A stretch of DNA of 64,000 bases from Fistulifera solaris (Eukaryota). Location of the stretch: positions 1,426,001-1,490,000 of the forward strand of contig AP026124.1 of NCBI GenBank assembly GCA_030295235.1. Reading direction: 5' to 3'. This document shows positions 47,886 through 62,941 of this stretch, one piece after another. The position numbers and the translations under genes are program-made. Within the stretch, counting starts at the first letter, position 1, and each line of letters starts with the position of its first letter. The notes beneath the pieces are model-generated. The model was given only the letters and a program-made list of their open reading frames with translations. It did no database searches and was not told the origin of the DNA.

Positions 47886-48250
47886 TATTTTTTTTAATTG
47901 GTTCCTTGCATAGCGTTTTTTCCAATAAAAAAGTACGGAATAACAATAAAATAATGTTGTGGTGAGTGGTGAAACAGTTCCGAAGACCAAAGAAAATAGT
48001 TTTGAGTACCGGTAGGGTCTTGTCCTGGACTGGGACGAAATAATATCGCATCGTCATAACCAATCGGGCATCTCTAAATTTAGCGGTCACCAATCTGAAA
48101 AGTATAGCAGTAATGGCTTGACATCTTTCTGTTTCGATTGAATTAAACGCCATTTGAATTATCTTCTATCTTATTCGACAGGAAACGTCAATACACTTGT
48201 GTTTCGATAAACATTATTATTGTATCAAAAATTCATCGAATGTCGTATCT

Positions 48251-48333
48251 GCAACTTTGTCCGAGTTGGTCTAAGGAGGTGGTTTCAAGCACCACTGTAT
48301 TCGTACGCATGGGTTCGAATCCCATAGGTTGCA
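48251..48333 (+). tRNA. tRNA-Leu-CAA: tRNA-Leu (anticodon CAA)
   Basis: Acceptor GCAACTT/AGGTTGC+A; anticodon arm GTGGT-TTCAAGC-ACCAC; long variable arm; T-arm ATGGG-TTCGAAT-CCCAT; T-rich terminator follows. Confidence 0.95.
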
Positions 48334-49764
48334 AAATTTTGTTTTGATTTTGAGGGAGCTAAAGGTCTAATCTACGTAGTAGCTGTTCTTGGTACAACAG
48401 CGAATATTACGTGGTACAATTGCTCCTAGTTTACTGTAATCTGCCTTTAAACTTAAAACCAGGTACCATCTGTCCGCTGCATTATATGTTATCCTTGATC
48501 GTCATTATTGGGACAGTGACAGCACTCCAGCTGGGTCAAACCGACAAAGCCCGGAATGCCAGCTACAAGTAGTTCGGCTGGGACAAATTGCTTTGAAGCT
48601 ATCAATGGTGTATCCAGTATCCAGTGAAGCCGTAAGCTCTAGGCCAAGTGCGGTAGATATTAAGGGTTTTCACTACAAGAATGATTTTTTACATTGTTGC
48701 ATCATGCTAATTATGTTATCTCTGTAACTACACAACAGTCGGGACGGACGTTCGATTCGACAAATCTTTCAAACTAGATGTCGAATTCTCATCCAAATTT
48801 TTGTCCATCCGTGTGCTTTTCTTTGTGTATTTTCTTGTTGTAGCTTTGCCCCAAAACAGATGTCGCAACAAGGTTATCTTTGCTGTTATCGTCGCGTTCA
48901 TTTTTTACATGATCAACTGTCAAACCCATGCCGGCCAGAGAAATTTGGTTCTGGATTTCATAGCACAAACGACTGAAAATGTACCGCGTGCGCGAACCAT
49001 TCACATCTTCTATGTCGACCGTTTTTTGAAACCATCCATCTTCATACCAAGTCTCAGTGATACTGAGCATTCCATCAGGACCCACCCAAATATATTCCAG
49101 GTGTTCTTCCGGATAGCGATCTCATGTTGCATAATCAACCTTGACATTGGGATCGATGCGCTTTAGATCGAAACACTGGGCAAAGAAACGAGAAAGAGAA
49201 CGGTGAGAGCTTTAACACCAACACAAATGACAGCGAAGTTGGCGCAATACGCATAGAGGGTCCAAATTTTCTGCCCGATGATTGTCTTCCCATGGAATCC
49301 ATCTGAACACGCCGGATGTCGTTATTCGATCGGTGACTGTCGTGCTGACAAATGTGACCCGCAGGTCGAGATCCAACGAAGGCGGTCAAGTTGAGGTGTC
49401 CAATCGCAAATCTACAAGCCCGACCGATTTGTTCACTTCGAAATGTGGCATATCTTTTGCACCTCGCGCCGGTGTCGATTAGCATACTCCCGAATGTCCG
49501 AATCAAGTACACTTCATAGAGCTCTATGAACTCCTTGAAGTCAGACCGAGCTCGATTCTTTTCCGCAATTACACATCGAACACCTATAATTTCTGTGTCT
49601 CCGTTAAAATTTTTTGGATTGCAATGGCTTTGCTTACAAAGCGAAAATGCACCCAAATCACGCAATCGATATTGCATATCAAGTAGACGACTGGAAAAAC
49701 GTAGTATTCAAACCCCAGCCCTGTGCCTGAAATGGCATAATCAACTTCAAAGATTGCTTTCTCA

Positions 49765-50410
49765 TCCACAAAAAGGAATTCGGCAAAGATTCATCCTACG
49801 CTCCACATATCTGCCGGGGAGGAATATTCCGTCGAACCGAGAAGAAGCTCCGGAGATTTGTACCACAATATAATCGCTTGCGGTGATAAATGTGGGCATA
49901 CCATACATGCGCGCTAAACCAAAATCTGCCAATTTTATGGTTCCGTCTCTTAGAAACAACATGTTGTTTGAGATCCAGCGCATGAGAGATATGCGTTGCC
50001 TTCCAACTCCAAAAATGAATCCTCCGTTTTTCTTACGGAGTTTCAAATCGCGGAGTTATATCCACCGATCATAACACGCTGCTATAGAGGTCAACAGGGA
50101 TTTCATATGTTAGACACAGAAATGGCTTTGTTCGATAGGATTTTTTTAACTTCGGTAAACACACACTCGTATACGAGGCAGACTCCCAAATCAGGTGTGG
50201 TAAAGCAGTCGACTAACTCGATGATGTTTTTTCGTGTTTGAATGCTCGCAATAATCTGATCTCTCGTACGGCAGTAAAGTTGATACCTTCTTCGGGTCGT
50301 TTGGATTTGATCTTTTGATGGCAACGATGCGAGCGGAAGCGATTTGCATAGCCAAAAGTGAACGACACCCCGTGTTCGCTGGCCCAATGCTTTTTGTAGT
50401 TCTCGTACCA
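49765..50410 (-). pseudogene. CDK7/CDKD-like kinase pseudogene, 3'-truncated
   Basis: RIVAIKR, EGINFTAVREIRLL (CDK7 NFTALRE signature), NIIELVD, I*LRDLK (stop, HRD lost), [30 protein letters not shown]. In-frame stops and frameshifts outside homopolymers. Confidence 0.8.
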
Positions 50411-56405: not shown

Positions 56406-57822
56406 TTACGTCAATGGCATTTGCTCCTCCGTTTTAGCCGATGACTGAGAACGAAATGCCAATTGAGCGACGTTTCTAGTTATTTGACGGAAGCGCCGTG
56501 CTAGCTTCTGTTCATCTGGTTCCCCTGTAACTTCGGCAGGAGTCGGTAAGCACAACCAGCAGACCGGTAGAAGCCCTTGTACCAAACGATCTTCATACAG
56601 CGCCCTTAGCATGTCGTCTAGTCGTACGAGCTGCGAGGTGTTCTTGCACATCGATGTCTGGCCTTGTTGTTCTTGTACGCGATCTGTAACCATCTTTAAA
56701 TCAGACTGTACGTGATCGAACGCCTCTTTCCCAGTTTCGACTTGCCCTACAAGCCATTGTAGATCGGTTACAAATTGTCGCGTCACCAATGAGTCAGACC
56801 CAGTCCTTTTGTGAAGCACAATAATGAAACTCTCCAGTGCGTAAATATCGGGTGCACCCAGCGATTCGCGAATTAGGTGCAACGTGTCCAAATCGGGCCG
56901 AATTCTCCGACTTAGCTCAGGATGACTCTCGAGATACTCCGAGATTATGGCAATATCATCACTCATTCGTAGCAAAGCCCGTCTTGTACTGATGAACGGG
57001 TGATCACGCCGTCGCCGACAGGCATCGGCTTTTGAATTAGAGATCGAACATAGAAACAGATGCATGCATTTGCCGCCATCCAAAGCGCTTTGTTGTATAG
57101 TATATCGTCGGATAGATATCGCTTGACCGTGCTCAGGTAATCATCTATGGTTTGCATTAACTCTTTGACAACTTCATTCTGTATCAGTTCCTCTTCCCAT
57201 GCAGCACTGAAGATCATTTGTGGTATAGAGGTATTATGCTGTATCGTCCGCAACAGAAAGACTAGCGTCCGCTCGGTCGCCTGTACGGCGAGTCGACTGA
57301 GTTCGTGAACCAGGTCGTCCCCCAACGAAACGAATACGCTGCGTTCTGTTTGCCCCCTTTGAGTAGTCAATTCTTCTACTAGCTTTTCCATCTTCTCGGA
57401 CATACGCAAGAAATCATTCGCCGCTGCGCATGTCTCTTCCAGTGTCACATACATACGCTGATGGTACCGTTCCATGTGTTCATGTTGCACGCACTTGAGA
57501 ACGAAGAGCATTCCTTCGTCGAAAACACGGTCGTTCCCTTGTTCGACCAAGACACTGCGCTGGATCTGAATCAACGAGAAGACGTCCTCAGCAAGAGAAG
57601 TGGAGACTGACCCGTCGAGTGCCTCGTAAAAGTTGTGTTCGGTTCTGTTCGTTTGCAACAGCGGACAACGTTTTGAGGACAGAGAGTGGGATTTATACGT
57701 ACTAGGTAAACGAATAACGAGACTTACGCGTAAGCGTTTCTCACGGACTGAAACGCATGCTTTTGAAAGTGCGTCAGGAATGATTCGCCTTGCAGGTCAG
57801 TTAACTTCGCCTTGGTCGCCAT
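56406..57822 (-). CDS. Exocyst Sec6 (EXOC3) C-terminal-like helical protein
   Basis: Exon 1 from ATG 57822 to a GTAAGT donor; CAAANDF, IFSAAWE, TIDDYL...YL, CFYVRSL, RMSDDIAIISEYL pattern. Frameshift near 57031. Confidence 0.55.
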
Positions 57823-57985
57823 GATGTGCTATTGGTATACTCCTAGATGGGTTTGCGTTTGATTGCTTTTTGGTGTGTTTTTCTTTCTGTTTCGAGAAAA
57901 AGTAATAGATCATGAGCTATTTTGGTGCTCCATTAAGGTTAGTATCATATCTTGATGAAATTTTGTTTTTCCCACCTGGCTAGGT

Positions 57986-58072
57986 GCTACCTTAGCATAG
58001 TTGGTTATTGTACCTGATTCGTAAGATTTGCGCACGATCAGGAGGTCGCGTGTTCGAATCACGCAGGTAGCT
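57986..58072 (+). tRNA. tRNA-Thr-CGT: tRNA-Thr (anticodon CGT) with a 13-nt intron (58024-58036)
   Basis: Acceptor GCTACCT/AGGTAGC+T; anticodon stem CCTGA/TCAGG; loop TT-CGT-A|intron|A at the canonical 37/38 position; T-arm GCGTG-TTCGAAT-CACGC. Confidence 0.92.
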
Positions 58073-58339
58073 CTTTGCAAAATTGATCTTGCTACGCACA
58101 AAACTAATTTTTAAGAAGACAAACCCACCTAGATACATATTTTGTACCTTAGCTCTGTGAATCATCAACCAAACTAGGTTACAACAGGCTGTGCCAGATT
58201 TCCATAGGGTCCGGCACCATTAAATCATCTTGTTTCACCACTTCTCTACTAACCAAGGGTATTTACTTGAGTCTTCCTCGATTTGTGAATAGCTTTCTAT
58301 GTATGAAGTGTAATACTTGAGGCTGCTCATGAGTCAGCG

Positions 58340-58502
58340 CTACTTTGATTTAGTAATAAGGTGCGAGCCCAGGATCCACTAGAAGACTCGATCTTGCGCG
58401 TTCTCGCATACCACAATACGCCTGCTATCAAATTAGATTCCAATCGATTGTGTCGTCTTCTGCCAGTCTTCGATCCCGAGTGTTTACTATGGAGTAAGCA
58501 AA
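58340..58502. repeat. Direct repeat copy A (3' of the HNH-AP2 gene)
   Basis: Aligns with 59827-60003; core 58367-58408 is 40/42 identical to 59857-59898. Confidence 0.88.
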
Positions 58503-58545
58503 CTTAGCTTCACTCCGAGTTTTACTTTTTAGCACAGCATTTACA

Positions 58546-58568
58546 ACACACACACACACACACACACT
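58546..58568. repeat. (CA)n microsatellite
   Basis: About 11 CA units. Confidence 0.9.
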
Positions 58569-58663
58569 GCAATGACAATGGTACCTGGTACAAAAATTGA
58601 CTGCGATTCTATGATTAGTTTTACTCAAAAGTTTTACGGACTTCAGGGTCCACAATCTTGACA

Positions 58664-59806
58664 TCATACGACAATTTGAACGACACGTGTGTCGTACCAA
58701 TCAATTGCCATTTGTTTTGCACTGTTTTCCCCAAAAGTCTTTGTCGAGAACTTTTTGGACTTTTTCTTTCGAGCGGGTAGCCCCTTTACGAATGTACTCA
58801 CGAGCCAAAGCCACCCAGTAAGAATGTACTTTGAGGTCTTTCGTAGCACGGAAGACACCCACAACTGAGCCGTCTTTGCGTACTTTACGGTAGATGCGTT
58901 TGTTATTGGCCTGGTGGAGGATATCTCGTGGAAGGAGATTTCCAACCCAATTGTTCACCCCGTCTTGGTCGGCATGGTCGCATGTCAAATTGCTATCCAG
59001 AACCTTGCCTATATGCTTCTCCAGGACAAAACAGCAAAAGTCTCGTGTTCGCGCCACTTTCTGCTGGTCCACGAAGGTGATGCGGAAAGAGATTACCCCG
59101 TTGATAAGGCTAATCCGCTTTTTGATCGGAATGTACTTGCCTCGGCGAGTATCAATGATGTGGGTTCCATCCTCGCTGACAAGAATATGATCAAAGAGAG
59201 GGTGTTTCCACCAATTGTGTTTCCCACTGCTGAAGTACCACGGAATGATTTCGAGCGTGGACAATTCGTAATATTTTCTAAGTTGTAATCGATGAGTAAT
59301 GAGTAATGATCAATGAACGAGCGCATTGGCTTTCTTGCACAGCATTGCAAGCGCTAAACGTACTCTTTGTCTTTGTTGATATTGGTCAAAGCGGCTGTTG
59401 TTGGCAATTGACATCCAATCCAAAACTACGATGCGATTGTCTTGAATGCCGCCATCTATGTGATGACCCACGTGTCCCTCTGGTCGCCGGCCTTTGAACT
59501 TGATCAACACTAAGTGGTGAACAAAAATGCTTTGTTTGTGTTGTTGCAGAGGTTGCTGTAAAGCCAGACTCATAGGTATCCATTGCCGTCAGGTTGAGAG
59601 CTTAGCACCATGTAGGATCTGGAAAGAACATGACCTTTGGCACCGGGCTTAGCTATGAAAGCCTCTCCTATGATGTCGTCAAACTCTGGGTCGAACTTGA
59701 ATTCATCCCGAATTGGTCGCCAACCCTGGTCACGGCTGATGATGAAACCATTTTCGTGCCAGAGATAAACCGCCGGACAGAACGAGGCCGATCTCAGTTG
59801 GGTTTC
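58664..59806 (-). pseudogene. Tandem NUMOD4/HNH-NUMOD4/HNH-AP2 homing-endonuclease-like gene, disrupted
   Basis: HNH1: GNGYL*VWLY...IFVHHLVLIKFKGRRPEGHVGHHIDGGIQDNRIVVLDWMSIANN. HNH2: TCDHADQDGVNNWVGNLLPRDILHQANN. AP2: GVFRATKDLKVHSYWVA...KKFSTKTFGENSAKQMAIDWY. GT-AG intron 59278-59363; TGA at 59570-59572; frameshifts near 59530, 59390 and 58765-58785. No clear ATG. Confidence 0.8.
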
Positions 59807-59826
59807 TCAACAAAATTTTACGAGAC

Positions 59827-60003
59827 CTAACTTGGATTTTAGTATCAACGTATGAGGCCCAGGACCCACTAGACGACTCGATCTTGCGCGTTCTCGCACG
59901 CCAAAATATGTCCGCTTTTAAATAATCATTTTGTTTCCAAGCGGTTTTGCCGTCTTCAACCAGCCTTCGACCCCAAGTGTTTATTAGACTACGGAGTAAG
60001 CAA
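59827..60003. repeat. Direct repeat copy B (5' of the HNH-AP2 gene)
   Basis: Aligns with 58340-58502. Confidence 0.88.
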
Positions 60004-60188
60004 CATCAGGTACATTGGAATAATTATTTTGACTCAAACCCTAATCGTAATCGACTTACCTTGTACTGTAAGGTCCTAGAGTACTCCTTGCGGACGATAA
60101 ACAACCCAGGACAACAGCAGCGTTGAAAATTGAAAGGCATTGTGAATGTTTTACCCTTACTACTTTAATAAGAGCACTAATCAACAAC

Positions 60189-62941
60189 ATGACATCTACA
60201 GGTTCATCTCATTCGTACCTGTCTCCTTCCATGTCGACATCCCAGAGGCCGAAAGTGTCAGCCGTTCTCACGGGAGCGCCGCTCCTATCCGACGTCGGCG
60301 TCTTGTTGGATCAACTCGATTCAGACGCTCGCAACTCGTCTCCGTTTGATCCAGTGGCATTTTTGAATAAGAACTTTGCCAATGAAACGATTCTGACCAA
60401 TCAGCTTCCTTATTTGCGCAAGGCCGTGGGCGAACGCATGGAAACGTTAGACGACCGTATATCGACCGCCTTGCAGCGACAGTCCGAAACCGCTGTCGCT
60501 ACCCGCAAACATGTACAAGATGCGAAAGCATCCGTGGCCGCACTCGAAAAACGCATCAAACAAGTCCAAGAAAAGGCATCACAAAGCGAAAAAGCGGTCT
60601 TGGAAATTACTCGAGACATGAAGCGCCTGGATTATGCGAAGCGCCATTTGCAGCGGACGATTACTACTTTGAAACAGTTGCACATGTTAGTCCATGCCGT
60701 TGAGCAATTGCGCTTGCGCACCGCACAGCAACCATTTCCGGATTATAAGGCGGCGTCACATCTCATGGATGCGACCCGCTTGTTGCTGAGTCATTTCAGT
60801 GGGTACACGCAGAAAGTGGAACCTATGCGCATTTTGTCTCTACAAGTTCAGAGATACGAAGCACAATTGAAAGATGGGCTCGTTTATGGATTTCGAGTTG
60901 TGGCATTTGGGGCTCGGAAGGCGATGGAACTTCAAGACAAAAAGAAGTCTGGAGTCAAAAGTAAAAGTGCAGCCGCAATGGACGATGATTCAGATCATGA
61001 GGAAACGGTGGCTGTCATGACGGTTGAGGATATGCAAGGTGGAGTTTTGGTCTTTGATGCACTTGGAGATAGAACGCGGACTCAGTTCATCCGTACGTTT
61101 TGCGAAGATTATCTGGAGGATTATGTCAAAGACTTTGAACCTCCGTCGCCCGAAACAAAACCAGAAAGACGCGTTTCGAGTTTCAAAGCAGCCGAAACAA
61201 AAACGGAATCAGAAAAGTCGTTCGCTGGTCTGGATCAGCTCGAGAAGCGATATTCCTGGTTTCGCGATTTATTGGAGCAGAATCTGAATGCGAAGTTCAA
61301 GCGTGTATTTCCGGAAGATTGGAACTTGCAAGCCACTTTGGCGAGCATGTTTCTTGAGCTAGTACGTTCTTTTAGCAGTTCATTGAATGGTTTTTGTGGT
61401 AACTTGTGCTAAATCTTCTATTCACCATTATTGCAGACTCGAGATCATGTCCTTGCGTTGCTTGAGGGTCCTCGAAAAGACGCAGACGCAACCAATGCTA
61501 CTATTCTTTTAAAAGCACTCCAGAAAACAATTCTCTTTGAAAAGGACATAACGGCTTATCTTCAGCGTGAATTCCATACTGTGTTCACAGGAATCGACTC
61601 AGCAAAAGCTTCTGATGCTTATGCAATCAAGCCACTCCTAGGCATAGCCTCAGCAGCGTTTGAGCCGTACATGAGCCCTTATATCGGTTTGGAGGAGCAA
61701 AAATGGATGAACAATTGGTCGAGGCACTAGAAGATCGCACCGTAGATACCAGAGGTGAACGCCCTGTCTTTATTTCCTCTACCAATCTGTTTGTGACTAT
61801 CAAAGGCAGTATGGCTCGGTGTACTGCTTTAACGAAGGGTCATGCTTTCTTTTTGTTGTACCAAGCGTTCAAAGACTCTCTGCGCAAGTACGCTCAGATT
61901 TTAAACGGAAAGTTGCCGTCAGTGTTGCCAAGCTCCGCGGTCGTGGGCGGGTTATCGCTTCCGGGGACTTTCGGAGGCAAGCACGACCAGAATGTCGAAG
62001 CATCGTATCGTCTTCCTCCTGGGGAAGAAATCACAGTGTGTCACGTTATCAGTACCTGCGATTACTGCGCTGATACCGTAGAGGCCTTAGAAGATCTGAT
62101 TCGAGATACAATCGATGAGGAATATCAGGATAAAATTGACATGATGTCTGACCAGGAAATCTTTCATGAGACAACTGCCAAGTCTATTCGGGTTCTCGTC
62201 TCTGGTCTTTGTAACCGACTTGATGGCGCTCTCAAAAGTATGGCCGCAATGAACTGGGGAACCTGGGATGCGGTAGGAGAAGAGAGTTCCTACGTCCGCA
62301 TGATTCATGAAGAAGTCCAGCCAATGGTGTTGCAAATTCGTGGATTGCTTCCTGCATCCTACTTTCGCAGCTTTTGCGATAAGTTTGCCAGTCAGTTTAT
62401 TTCTCTTTACAGTGGCAATCTAATGCGCTTGAAGCGAATCAGCGAGCCAGGAACACAGCAAATATTGCTTGATGTGTATAGCGTTAAAACACTTCTGCTC
62501 AAGCTCCCGATCCTAGAGGATGGAAAGGGATCAAAATCGGGTGCGGCAGGGACAGCCCTCGCTCCAGCTATGTACACGAAAATGGTACAAAAACAGTTTA
62601 GCGGCATCGAGACTCTTCTGAAACTTGTCGGCACACCAAACGATCTTTTGATAGACAATTTCAAGGTTCAAACGAGCAATGGAAAGCCTATCGATCTTCA
62701 GGTTGTTATGAATTTGAAAGGATTGAAGCGTAACGAGCAAGTCAGTATGCTGGAAAAGTACGGATTAGATCCAGTAAGTGCGCTAAAATCAGTAACCTCC
62801 GGCTTGACATCGGCAACGATCGTATCGGAACGAGTTCAAGCTTTGCAGGACCAAGGATCTACTGTGGCTGCGAAGATGAATTCAGATTTGAGTCAAATGC
62901 GACAAAAAGTGGACGACTTCCGCAAATCCTTTAGGCCATAA
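60189..62941 (+). CDS. VPS53: GARP/EARP complex subunit Vps53
   Basis: FDPVAFLNKNF, KASQSEKAVLEITRDMKRLDYAKRHL..TITTLK.LHMLV, LDQLEKRYSWF, AFEPYM..YI..E, WGTWDAVGEESSYV, QQILLDVY. Intron about 61362-61436; frameshift near 61700. Confidence 0.95.

Follow-up and report, generated by a model that had tools for sequence, protein, structure and literature searches.

The stretch analysed here, referred to as the window, is a 64,000-nucleotide part of contig AP026124.1 from the diatom Fistulifera solaris. Between a tRNA-Thr(CGT) gene and the VPS53 gene, at 58621-59806, its minus strand encodes a pair of I-HmuI-like HNH modules followed by an AP2-like domain. A sequence-only reading of this region had joined several broken open reading frames (ORFs) into one HNH, HNH and AP2 protein; this minus-strand reading is present in the window, with Pfam HNH_3 matched above its cut-off and AP2 matched below its own, at an E value of 4e-4. 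The extent had been placed at 58664..59806. The 5′ limit of 59806 was retained, and the 3′ limit was moved from 58664 to the stop codon of the nuclease gene, 58621-58623.

Reading frame and damage of the nuclease gene

In the window as given, the gene is read in frame 0 from 59806 (..WRPIRDEF..DGNGYL) and then meets a TGA at 59570-59572 on the minus strand. The rest of unit 1 is read in frame 2 (..FVHHLVLIKFKG..FVHHLV..GHHIDGGIQDNR..LDWMSIANNSR). Past 59278-59363, frame 2 is resumed with KYYELS..WWKHPLFDHILVSEDG..TCDHADQDGVNNWVGNL..QANN..GVFRATKDLKVHSYWVA.., which includes GV..YWVA, and the C-terminal piece (..KKFSTKTFGENSAKQMAIDW) lies in frame 0. The parts of the gene, in the direction of its reading, are as follows.

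59364..59806, minus strand: exon 1 remnant, the first HNH unit without a start codon, with the TGA and two assembly indels (59391, 59522)
59570..59572, minus strand: in-frame TGA inside unit 1, unchanged in the X1 contigs described below
59391..59525, minus strand: HNH_3 core of unit 1 (FVHHLV..GHHIDG..DNR..LDW..ANN), from Pfam HNH_3 and PHROGs
59278..59363, minus strand: predicted GT-AG spliceosomal intron, 86 nt, from the sequence and the GenBank junction
58621..59277, minus strand: exon 2, with the second HNH unit, the AP2-like domain, the C-terminal tail and the stop, from tblastn of P0001 and the restored frame
58860..59219, minus strand: second HNH unit (P0001 residues 37-156), an N-terminal beta domain and a beta-beta-alpha-metal core, from fold and profile
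58660..58892, minus strand: AP2-like domain (P0001 residues ~146-223), three strands followed by a helix, from a Pfam match below the cut-off, the model and the fold search

The best database match for the 3′ part of the gene was GenBank GAX19873.1, a 235-aa "hypothetical protein" of Fistulifera solaris (FisN_1Lu663, here P0001). In tblastn, 174 of 175 residues were identical between P0001 and the window in the main block, before the first indel. The locus had been put forward as the best candidate for a novel element; that claim is not supported, since its 3′ part is already an annotated GenBank protein. No published account of a diatom HNH-AP2 family was located, as judged by titles and abstracts, and the family is an undescribed diatom variant of the HNH-AP2 nucleases.

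The interval 59278-59363 has GT at its start and AG at its end on the minus strand, and its junction is identical to that in GAX19873.1 (..NINKDKE joined to KYYELS..). If the intron is left unspliced, a stop follows after 2 codons. The intron had seemed out of frame, 86 not being a multiple of 3 and both flanks lying in frame 2, because of a homopolymer difference at 59391; the frame is kept across the 86 nt only once this difference is counted. The intron proposed from the letters alone is therefore kept as a prediction. The nuclear setting of the gene is supported too, and the GenBank model uses the same predicted spliceosomal intron.

The window was compared with X1, the Logan contigs of one public run that contains this stretch, from the same organism and independent of the window's assembly; positions 58538-58574 were left out of the comparison as repeat. 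X1 behaves as a DNA run because its depth, 15-19, is even over intergenic DNA. Over the gene, the near-identical X1 contigs differ from the window by four indels (+CG behind 58696, -1 at 58761, -1 at 59391 and +A behind 59522) and by one substitution (TT>GC at 59017-18). Three of the four indels in the gene (58761, 59391 and 59522) are at homopolymer sites, and 58696 is a CG dinucleotide. When these five differences were applied by script and 59278-59363 was removed, a single frame of 375 codons was obtained from 59806 to 58621-58623, with one stop (the TGA) and with P0001 entire. Since four independent indels all restore one frame, X1 probably represents the biological sequence. All four frameshifts are absent from these independent contigs of the same organism and are therefore errors of the window's assembly, as had been considered possible for the homopolymer sites. 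Other "frameshifted" genes of this assembly may be indel errors as well, and pseudogene calls elsewhere in the genome need the same caution. Further X1 indel differences were observed outside the gene, at 57867 and 57878.

The TGA at 59570-72 was unchanged in the near-identical X1 contig spanning 59250-59633, with 0 other letters. With the first unit as the query, a close copy of 250 aa, P0061, was found to match 59779-59445 at 80-89% identity. It reads ..GYLRVWLYSNLCNNTNKAFFVHHLV.., including ..GYLRVWLY.., and has Arg where the window has the TGA. Given this Arg, a change of CGA>TGA is reasonable, and the nonsense codon in unit 1 probably arose by it. A placement of the TGA inside an intron was rejected, weakly, after a by-eye check in which no frame-keeping GT..AG interval was found.

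P0061 also carries 138 extra N-terminal residues with a Met start, which a by-eye comparison showed to be homologous to the region before the nuclease part in the paralogue FisN_7Hu104 (P0045). This N-terminus had no match anywhere in the window at E<5. The homology of the window gene to P0061 and P0045 begins at 59779, and from the upstream stop (59807-59809) down to the Met codon (59609-59611) the frame contains no ATG. With the TGA confirmed, and with both the unit-1 start codon and the P0061 N-terminus absent, no complete translatable gene is found; by its sequence, the copy is 5′-truncated at about 59780-59806 and nonsense-mutated. A full-length protein cannot be made because the first ~138 codons, including the start, are lost and a nonsense codon stands in unit 1. 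The view that this copy is dead, taken from the TGA at the outset, is thereby confirmed for the full-length gene. A 235-codon ORF from the internal Met, comprising the second HNH unit and the AP2-like domain across the predicted intron, is still open and is the same as FisN_1Lu663.

A second X1 contig is ~9% diverged over the gene (47 differences in 504 bases) and has a +2 insertion behind 59184. Apparent pieces of this diverged copy are the short ORFs P0003 (80 aa, 89% identical) and P0028 (70 aa, which reads through the intron). On the evidence of one contig, the sister copy looks damaged too.

Domains, fold and relatives

Pfam HNH_3 (PF13392) matched unit 1 with an E value of 4.8e-7 and 29.8 bits, above the cut-off of 24.8 bits. 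Pfam AP2 (PF00847) matched the C-terminal piece and P0001 with E values of 1.7e-4 to 4e-4 and 21.1-22.2 bits, below the curated cut-off of 33.3 bits. The 202-aa second-unit piece of this copy had no Pfam match; in the paralogues P0002 and P0045, the second unit matched HNH_3 with 30.1 and 34.7 bits. The first unit had been described as NUMOD4-like plus HNH. Its HNH part was upheld, and NUMOD4 (PF07463) had no match at E<=1 in the four pieces, P0001 or P0002; the corresponding I-HmuI N-terminal fold is matched. Among the PHROG HNH families, unit 1 matched phrog_1492 (E 1.7e-8) and phrog_959 (E 4.6e-8), and unit 2 matched phrog_14913 (E 3e-4, and E 9e-10 in P0045). Unit 1 has His where Asp is usual (..GHHIDG..); the motif of the second unit is ..CDHAD..NN..NL..QANN.

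A profile of the 21-member family alignment A2 was searched against 177,635 PDB sequences. It matched I-HmuI (1u3e) at E 0.0046, with DH..NN..NL aligned, and Toxoplasma AP2IX-6 at E 0.035. In the alignment to 1u3e, the DH, NN, NL and terminal N(N) of the family are opposite DH..NN..NL..N of I-HmuI.

The AlphaFold2 model of P0001 built on A2, which covers unit 2 and not unit 1, had a pLDDT of 83.5 and a pTM of 0.72. Its AP2-like domain was assigned strands at residues 158-160, 170-178 and 186-194 and helices at 195-212 (DSSP). A Foldseek search with this model ranked 1u3e_M first (E 1.1e-2, prob 1.00), with no row at E<=0.001. In the VIA fold search of 48,161 chains, which does not depend on Foldseek, 1u3e_M was again first, with a Z of 8.2, an rmsd of 2.7 and 105 aligned residues, over model residues 37-156. 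For model residues 146-223, AP2-domain chains were matched with Z values of 7.9, 7.8, 7.4, 5.6, 5.3, 4.8 and 4.7, among them Toxoplasma AP2-domain chains (7.9, 7.8 and 7.4), PfSIP2 (5.6), AtERF1 2gcc (4.8) and WRI1 (4.7); a VIA Z below 8 may reflect a common arrangement. Unit 2 of the model thus has a beta-beta-alpha-metal fold preceded by an I-HmuI-type N-terminal sheet, and the AP2-like domain has a three-stranded sheet packed on a C-terminal helix. The AP2 domain of the sequence-only reading is accordingly kept for its fold and not for its Pfam score. Taken together, the profile matches and the model support a phage-type HNH + HNH + AP2-like architecture.

Relatives of P0001 among 1.84 billion representatives numbered 43 at E<=1e-3, 11 at E<=1e-10 and 3 at E<=1e-30. 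Pfam was run on 30 of the 43. HNH_3 was present in 19 (8 above the cut-off) and AP2 in 15 at E<=0.01 (1 above the cut-off); both domains were present in 11 and neither in 7. The sole relative above the AP2 cut-off among the 30 scanned was P0042, with 88.5 bits. Family members with a named organism, among the 30 looked up, were from F. solaris only (1Lu663, 7Hu104, 6Hu206 and 5Lh380). The AP2-like domain of the family has a family-specific insert with the consensus ..YTPDGPT.S.., and the nearest ESM-Atlas clusters were phage "AP2/HNH endonuclease" proteins, with a score of 0.94.

The GenBank model of P0045 skips ~43 codons at residues ~517-518. These are the unit-1 core (here ..SYMV..GYLRVWLY..FVHHLVLIKFKG..). 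Either unit 1 is damaged in P0045 and the predictor spliced around it, or the gap is a true intron.

Flanking repeats, tRNA genes and interpretation of the locus

The features around the gene are as follows.

58340..58512, plus strand: left direct repeat, sharing 138/173 aligned bases (80%) with the right copy in an alignment with 15 gap columns
59827..60014, plus strand: right direct repeat, abutting the truncated 5′ end of the gene, upstream of the VPS53 ATG at 60189
58546..58567, unstranded: (AC)11 microsatellite between the left repeat and the 3′ end of the gene, read from the sequence
57986..58073, plus strand: tRNA-Thr(CGT), 75 nt without its 13-nt intron (58024-58036), which is at the canonical position 37/38, from ARAGORN with introns; Rfam 55.4 bits

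The neighbours had been named as SEC6-like and VPS53, and both were recovered: Vps53_N was matched at E 2e-44 in the gene with its ATG at 60189, and the Sec6-like ORF was matched weakly, at E 1e-4.

The two repeats are ~170 bp long and 80% identical, with a Kimura two-parameter (K2P) distance of 0.20-0.24. An exact 24-mer common to them has 2 occurrences in the window against 0 expected and is found only in these two copies. The repeats bracket the gene tightly: the gap is 27 nt on the 5′ side and ~110 nt on the side of the stop. At 85% likeness or more, the X1 depth over them is that of a single copy. An empty site, with the two repeats joined, is seen in no X1 contig, although contigs cannot prove absence. 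The repeats share no inverted termini and have no transposon hallmarks of the terminal inverted repeat (TIR) or long terminal repeat (LTR) type. An identity as a miniature inverted-repeat transposable element (MITE) or LTR is not supported, the two copies in the window lacking shared inverted termini. Readings of the repeats as RNA genes or tRNA-like sequence were rejected: over 57000-61000, the Rfam matches at E<=1 were the tRNA itself and three rows at chance level. With 57500-60300 as the query, blastn found nothing similar elsewhere in the window.

The diverged X1 contigs do not align over the repeat cores, 58343-58478 and 59781-60198 (joints 58342>58479 and 59780>60199). One of these contigs joins 59780 to 60199, the VPS53 start, which suggests that a second, homeolog-like copy also neighbours VPS53. 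The repeats may be old members of an interspersed repeat family rather than a local duplication. The direct repeats proposed at the outset are thus real, at 80% likeness; the mobility that had been read from them is not borne out, with two copies in the window, single-copy depth, no TIRs and no empty-site contig. Recent mobility of the locus is not supported. We read the locus as old and immobile, its 5′ exon probably having been lost in a local rearrangement.

By default, ARAGORN called 57986-58073 as tRNA-Tyr(GTA); this call was replaced by Thr(CGT) once introns were allowed, in agreement with the tRNA-Thr neighbour first noticed. The Thr(CGT) reading has the canonical U33 and a 5-nt variable loop. 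A distance of 548 bp separates the tRNA-Thr gene from the nuclease gene's 3′ end. The whole-window Rfam run at gathering thresholds missed it despite 55 bits in the E-value run, and the same Tyr/Thr mislabel may affect other eukaryotic windows. In X1 there is at least one further tRNA-Thr copy, identical in its exons and different in its intron, the listed differences all lying at 58025-58035, within the 13-nt intron, and the X1 depth over tRNA-Thr is 60 vs ~19 in the flanks.

The only other tRNA gene in the window, Leu(CAA) at 48250-48334, is also near a member of the family. A second, more diverged double-HNH fragment was found on the minus strand at 48804-49781, 470 bp beyond tRNA-Leu(CAA); it corresponds to residues 413-726 of FisN_5Lh380 and has lost its two ends and the AP2 part. 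The geometry is the same at both loci, a family member being placed 470-548 bp past the 3′ end of a tRNA gene on the opposite strand. In a permutation test, performed post hoc, the P value for both loci lying within 548 bp of a tRNA gene was 0.0015, or 0.012 with placement outside long ORFs. No flanking sequence is common to the two loci, whose spacers have at most 12 nt in common, and blastn-short of both tRNAs against the window gave only 9-13-nt chance matches. Since the test is post hoc, the closeness to tRNA genes is a lead and not a finding.

From these results, the locus is probably a decaying, front-truncated copy of a multi-copy nuclear gene family of Fistulifera solaris, a fossil and not a working or moving element. 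An intact protein of this family would have a variable N-terminal extension, two tandem I-HmuI-type modules and an AP2-like domain of three strands plus a helix, each module consisting of a beta-sheet DNA-contact domain and an HNH/His-Me-finger nuclease core. By analogy to I-HmuI and the phage HNH-AP2 enzymes, recognition of a specific DNA site would fall to the AP2-like and N-terminal domains and subsequent cutting to the HNH cores, and two cores could nick both strands. The gene would be old at its present site and flanked by an old local duplication. The sequence, the domains, the fold, the sorting of real from spurious breaks, the truncation and the family are observed; how the enzyme would work, whether the leftover ORF is a pseudogene and how old the locus is are inferred. 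The earlier proposal of a virus- or phage-derived nuclease turned spliced nuclear gene agrees with this in its phage-type architecture and its nuclear setting with a predicted intron; viral ancestry, its other part, is suggested by profile and fold.

Several results weigh against this interpretation. Concerning phage derivation, tblastn against 50,697 phage records gave no match, and 30 pattern matches in viral contigs (IMG/VR) included 0 relatives. In metagenome contigs, the 76 pattern matches obtained with a 6-sequence alignment included 0 relatives, and 91 obtained with P0001 as the query led to 1 distant relative, L001 (35% identity, 1712 bp, no tRNA). The case for "phage-derived" consists of similarity in profile and fold. 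Concerning the architecture, the second-unit piece of this copy is without a Pfam match, AP2 is below its cut-off and the fold matches of the AP2-like domain are below a Z of 8. Single-unit proteins, 166-272 aa long, make up most of the relatives; the double unit is seen in the F. solaris paralogues. Concerning the history of the locus, the repeats are 20% diverged vs 9% for the two gene copies; the synteny of the diverged copy comes from a single Logan contig, with its middle part "not known", and P0061 may be a paralogue and not a homeolog. Finally, the remaining 235-codon ORF is intact in X1 and GenBank, keeps DH..NN..NL..N and gives a confident model, and so could be a working single-unit gene.

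The last point leads to a different explanation, which we consider unlikely though worth weighing: a working truncated gene, with the 235-aa FisN_1Lu663 made from the internal Met after splicing and serving as a domesticated DNA-binding or nicking protein, and with unit 1 as a dead leader. Besides the open ORF, the retained motif residues and the confident structure model, it is favoured by the similar length of most relatives, which are single-unit proteins, and by the 89% identity of the C-terminal 80 residues to P0003. However, the diverged copy has its +2 insertion behind 59184 inside this ORF, its pieces being found only as the short ORFs P0003 and P0028, and the Met sits inside the remains of the unit-1 HNH core.

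It is doubtful that the family is, or was, a nuclear homing-type element targeting the neighbourhood of RNA-polymerase-III tRNA genes. Under such targeting, the truncated copies and odd flanking duplications would be scars of nuclease-initiated, repair-mediated insertion. Retroelements that target tRNA genes exist in yeast and Dictyostelium, and a tRNA-targeting nuclease family, if real, would be their DNA-level counterpart.

A mobile element proper, in which the 1.49-kb unit of repeat plus gene is or recently was selfish, with the repeats marking its insertion and the tRNA gene as its preferred target, is improbable. The direct repeats do bracket the gene closely, both tRNA genes of the window are 470-548 bp from an HNH-family fragment (P 0.0015 or 0.012), and the diverged X1 contigs leave 58343-58478 (left-repeat core) and 59781-60198 (right-repeat region) unaligned. 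However, the repeats are only 80% alike, without TIR or LTR hallmarks and not tRNA-like, they occur as two copies in the window at single-copy depth with no empty-site contig in X1, the gene itself is truncated and nonsense-mutated, and the two HNH loci have no flanking sequence in common. A fully intact gene, with every break an assembly artefact, the TGA and the missing start included, is hardly credible: all 4 frameshifts and one dinucleotide difference are indeed assembly-specific, but the TGA stands in an independent X1 contig with 0 other letters, the GenBank model begins downstream of it, no in-frame ATG lies between the stop at 59807-59809 and the Met at 59609-59611, and the P0061 N-terminus is absent from the window.

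Under the interpretation as a decaying copy, this locus is a fossil that contributes little more than a further family member. HNH-AP2 nucleases have been proposed as the ancestors of the AP2/ERF transcription factors of plants and the ApiAP2 factors of Apicomplexa. With its multi-copy, intron-bearing double-nuclease family, the diatom adds a eukaryotic lineage where HNH-AP2 genes settled in the nucleus, duplicated and decayed. The practical lesson is that assembly indel errors mimic frameshifts, and the lead that remains is that family members appear to lie closer to tRNA genes than random placement would give.

Comparison with known systems

I-HmuI of Bacillus phage SPO1 (PDB 1U3E) is an intron-encoded HNH homing nickase that is strand-specific. 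Its residues 1-106 superpose on unit 2 of the diatom protein. The diatom gene has two tandem HNH modules whereas I-HmuI has one, and the AP2-like domain replaces the C-terminal helical/HTH (helix-turn-helix) DNA-binding part of I-HmuI. The diatom gene is nuclear with a predicted spliceosomal-type intron, whereas I-HmuI is the ORF of a phage group I intron. Unlike I-HmuI, the diatom copy is truncated and nonsense-mutated, and it is known here from sequence and model.

HNH-AP2 proteins resembling homing endonucleases, from phages, cyanobacteria and the germline-limited elements of Tetrahymena, are said to have been described by Magnani et al. and by Wuitschick et al. in 2004. They have the same fusion of an HNH nuclease with AP2 DNA binding as the diatom family, to which their sequence relation is distant. 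To our knowledge, a double HNH has not been reported for any of these proteins. Excerpts of two papers state that a cyanobacterium, Tetrahymena and phages have HNH endonucleases that carry AP2 domains, and that the AP2 domain, where it is found outside plants and Apicomplexa, mostly accompanies a homing-endonuclease or integrase domain (PMC6781369, PMC4117751).

SegB is a free-standing homing endonuclease in the tRNA gene cluster of phage T4, as stated in an excerpt (PMC2330249). By analogy, both SegB and the diatom gene are, on this description, free-standing nuclease genes among or beside tRNA genes. SegB is a phage enzyme of the GIY-YIG type, whereas the diatom family is HNH, has tRNA adjacency only and is known from sequence.

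A NUMOD4-HNH_3-AP2 protein with a confident match to I-HmuI is described, in an excerpt, from a polinton-like virus element of Symbiodinium (PMC12220804). As described there, this protein is in a viral element beside a recombinase, whereas the diatom locus lies among host genes (VPS53, tRNA-Thr and the Sec6-like ORF) with no viral genes seen; it also has NUMOD4, whereas the diatom copy is without a Pfam NUMOD4 match. Like the diatom gene, the Symbiodinium protein, so far as the excerpt goes, is a fusion of HNH_3 and AP2 resident in a eukaryotic genome.

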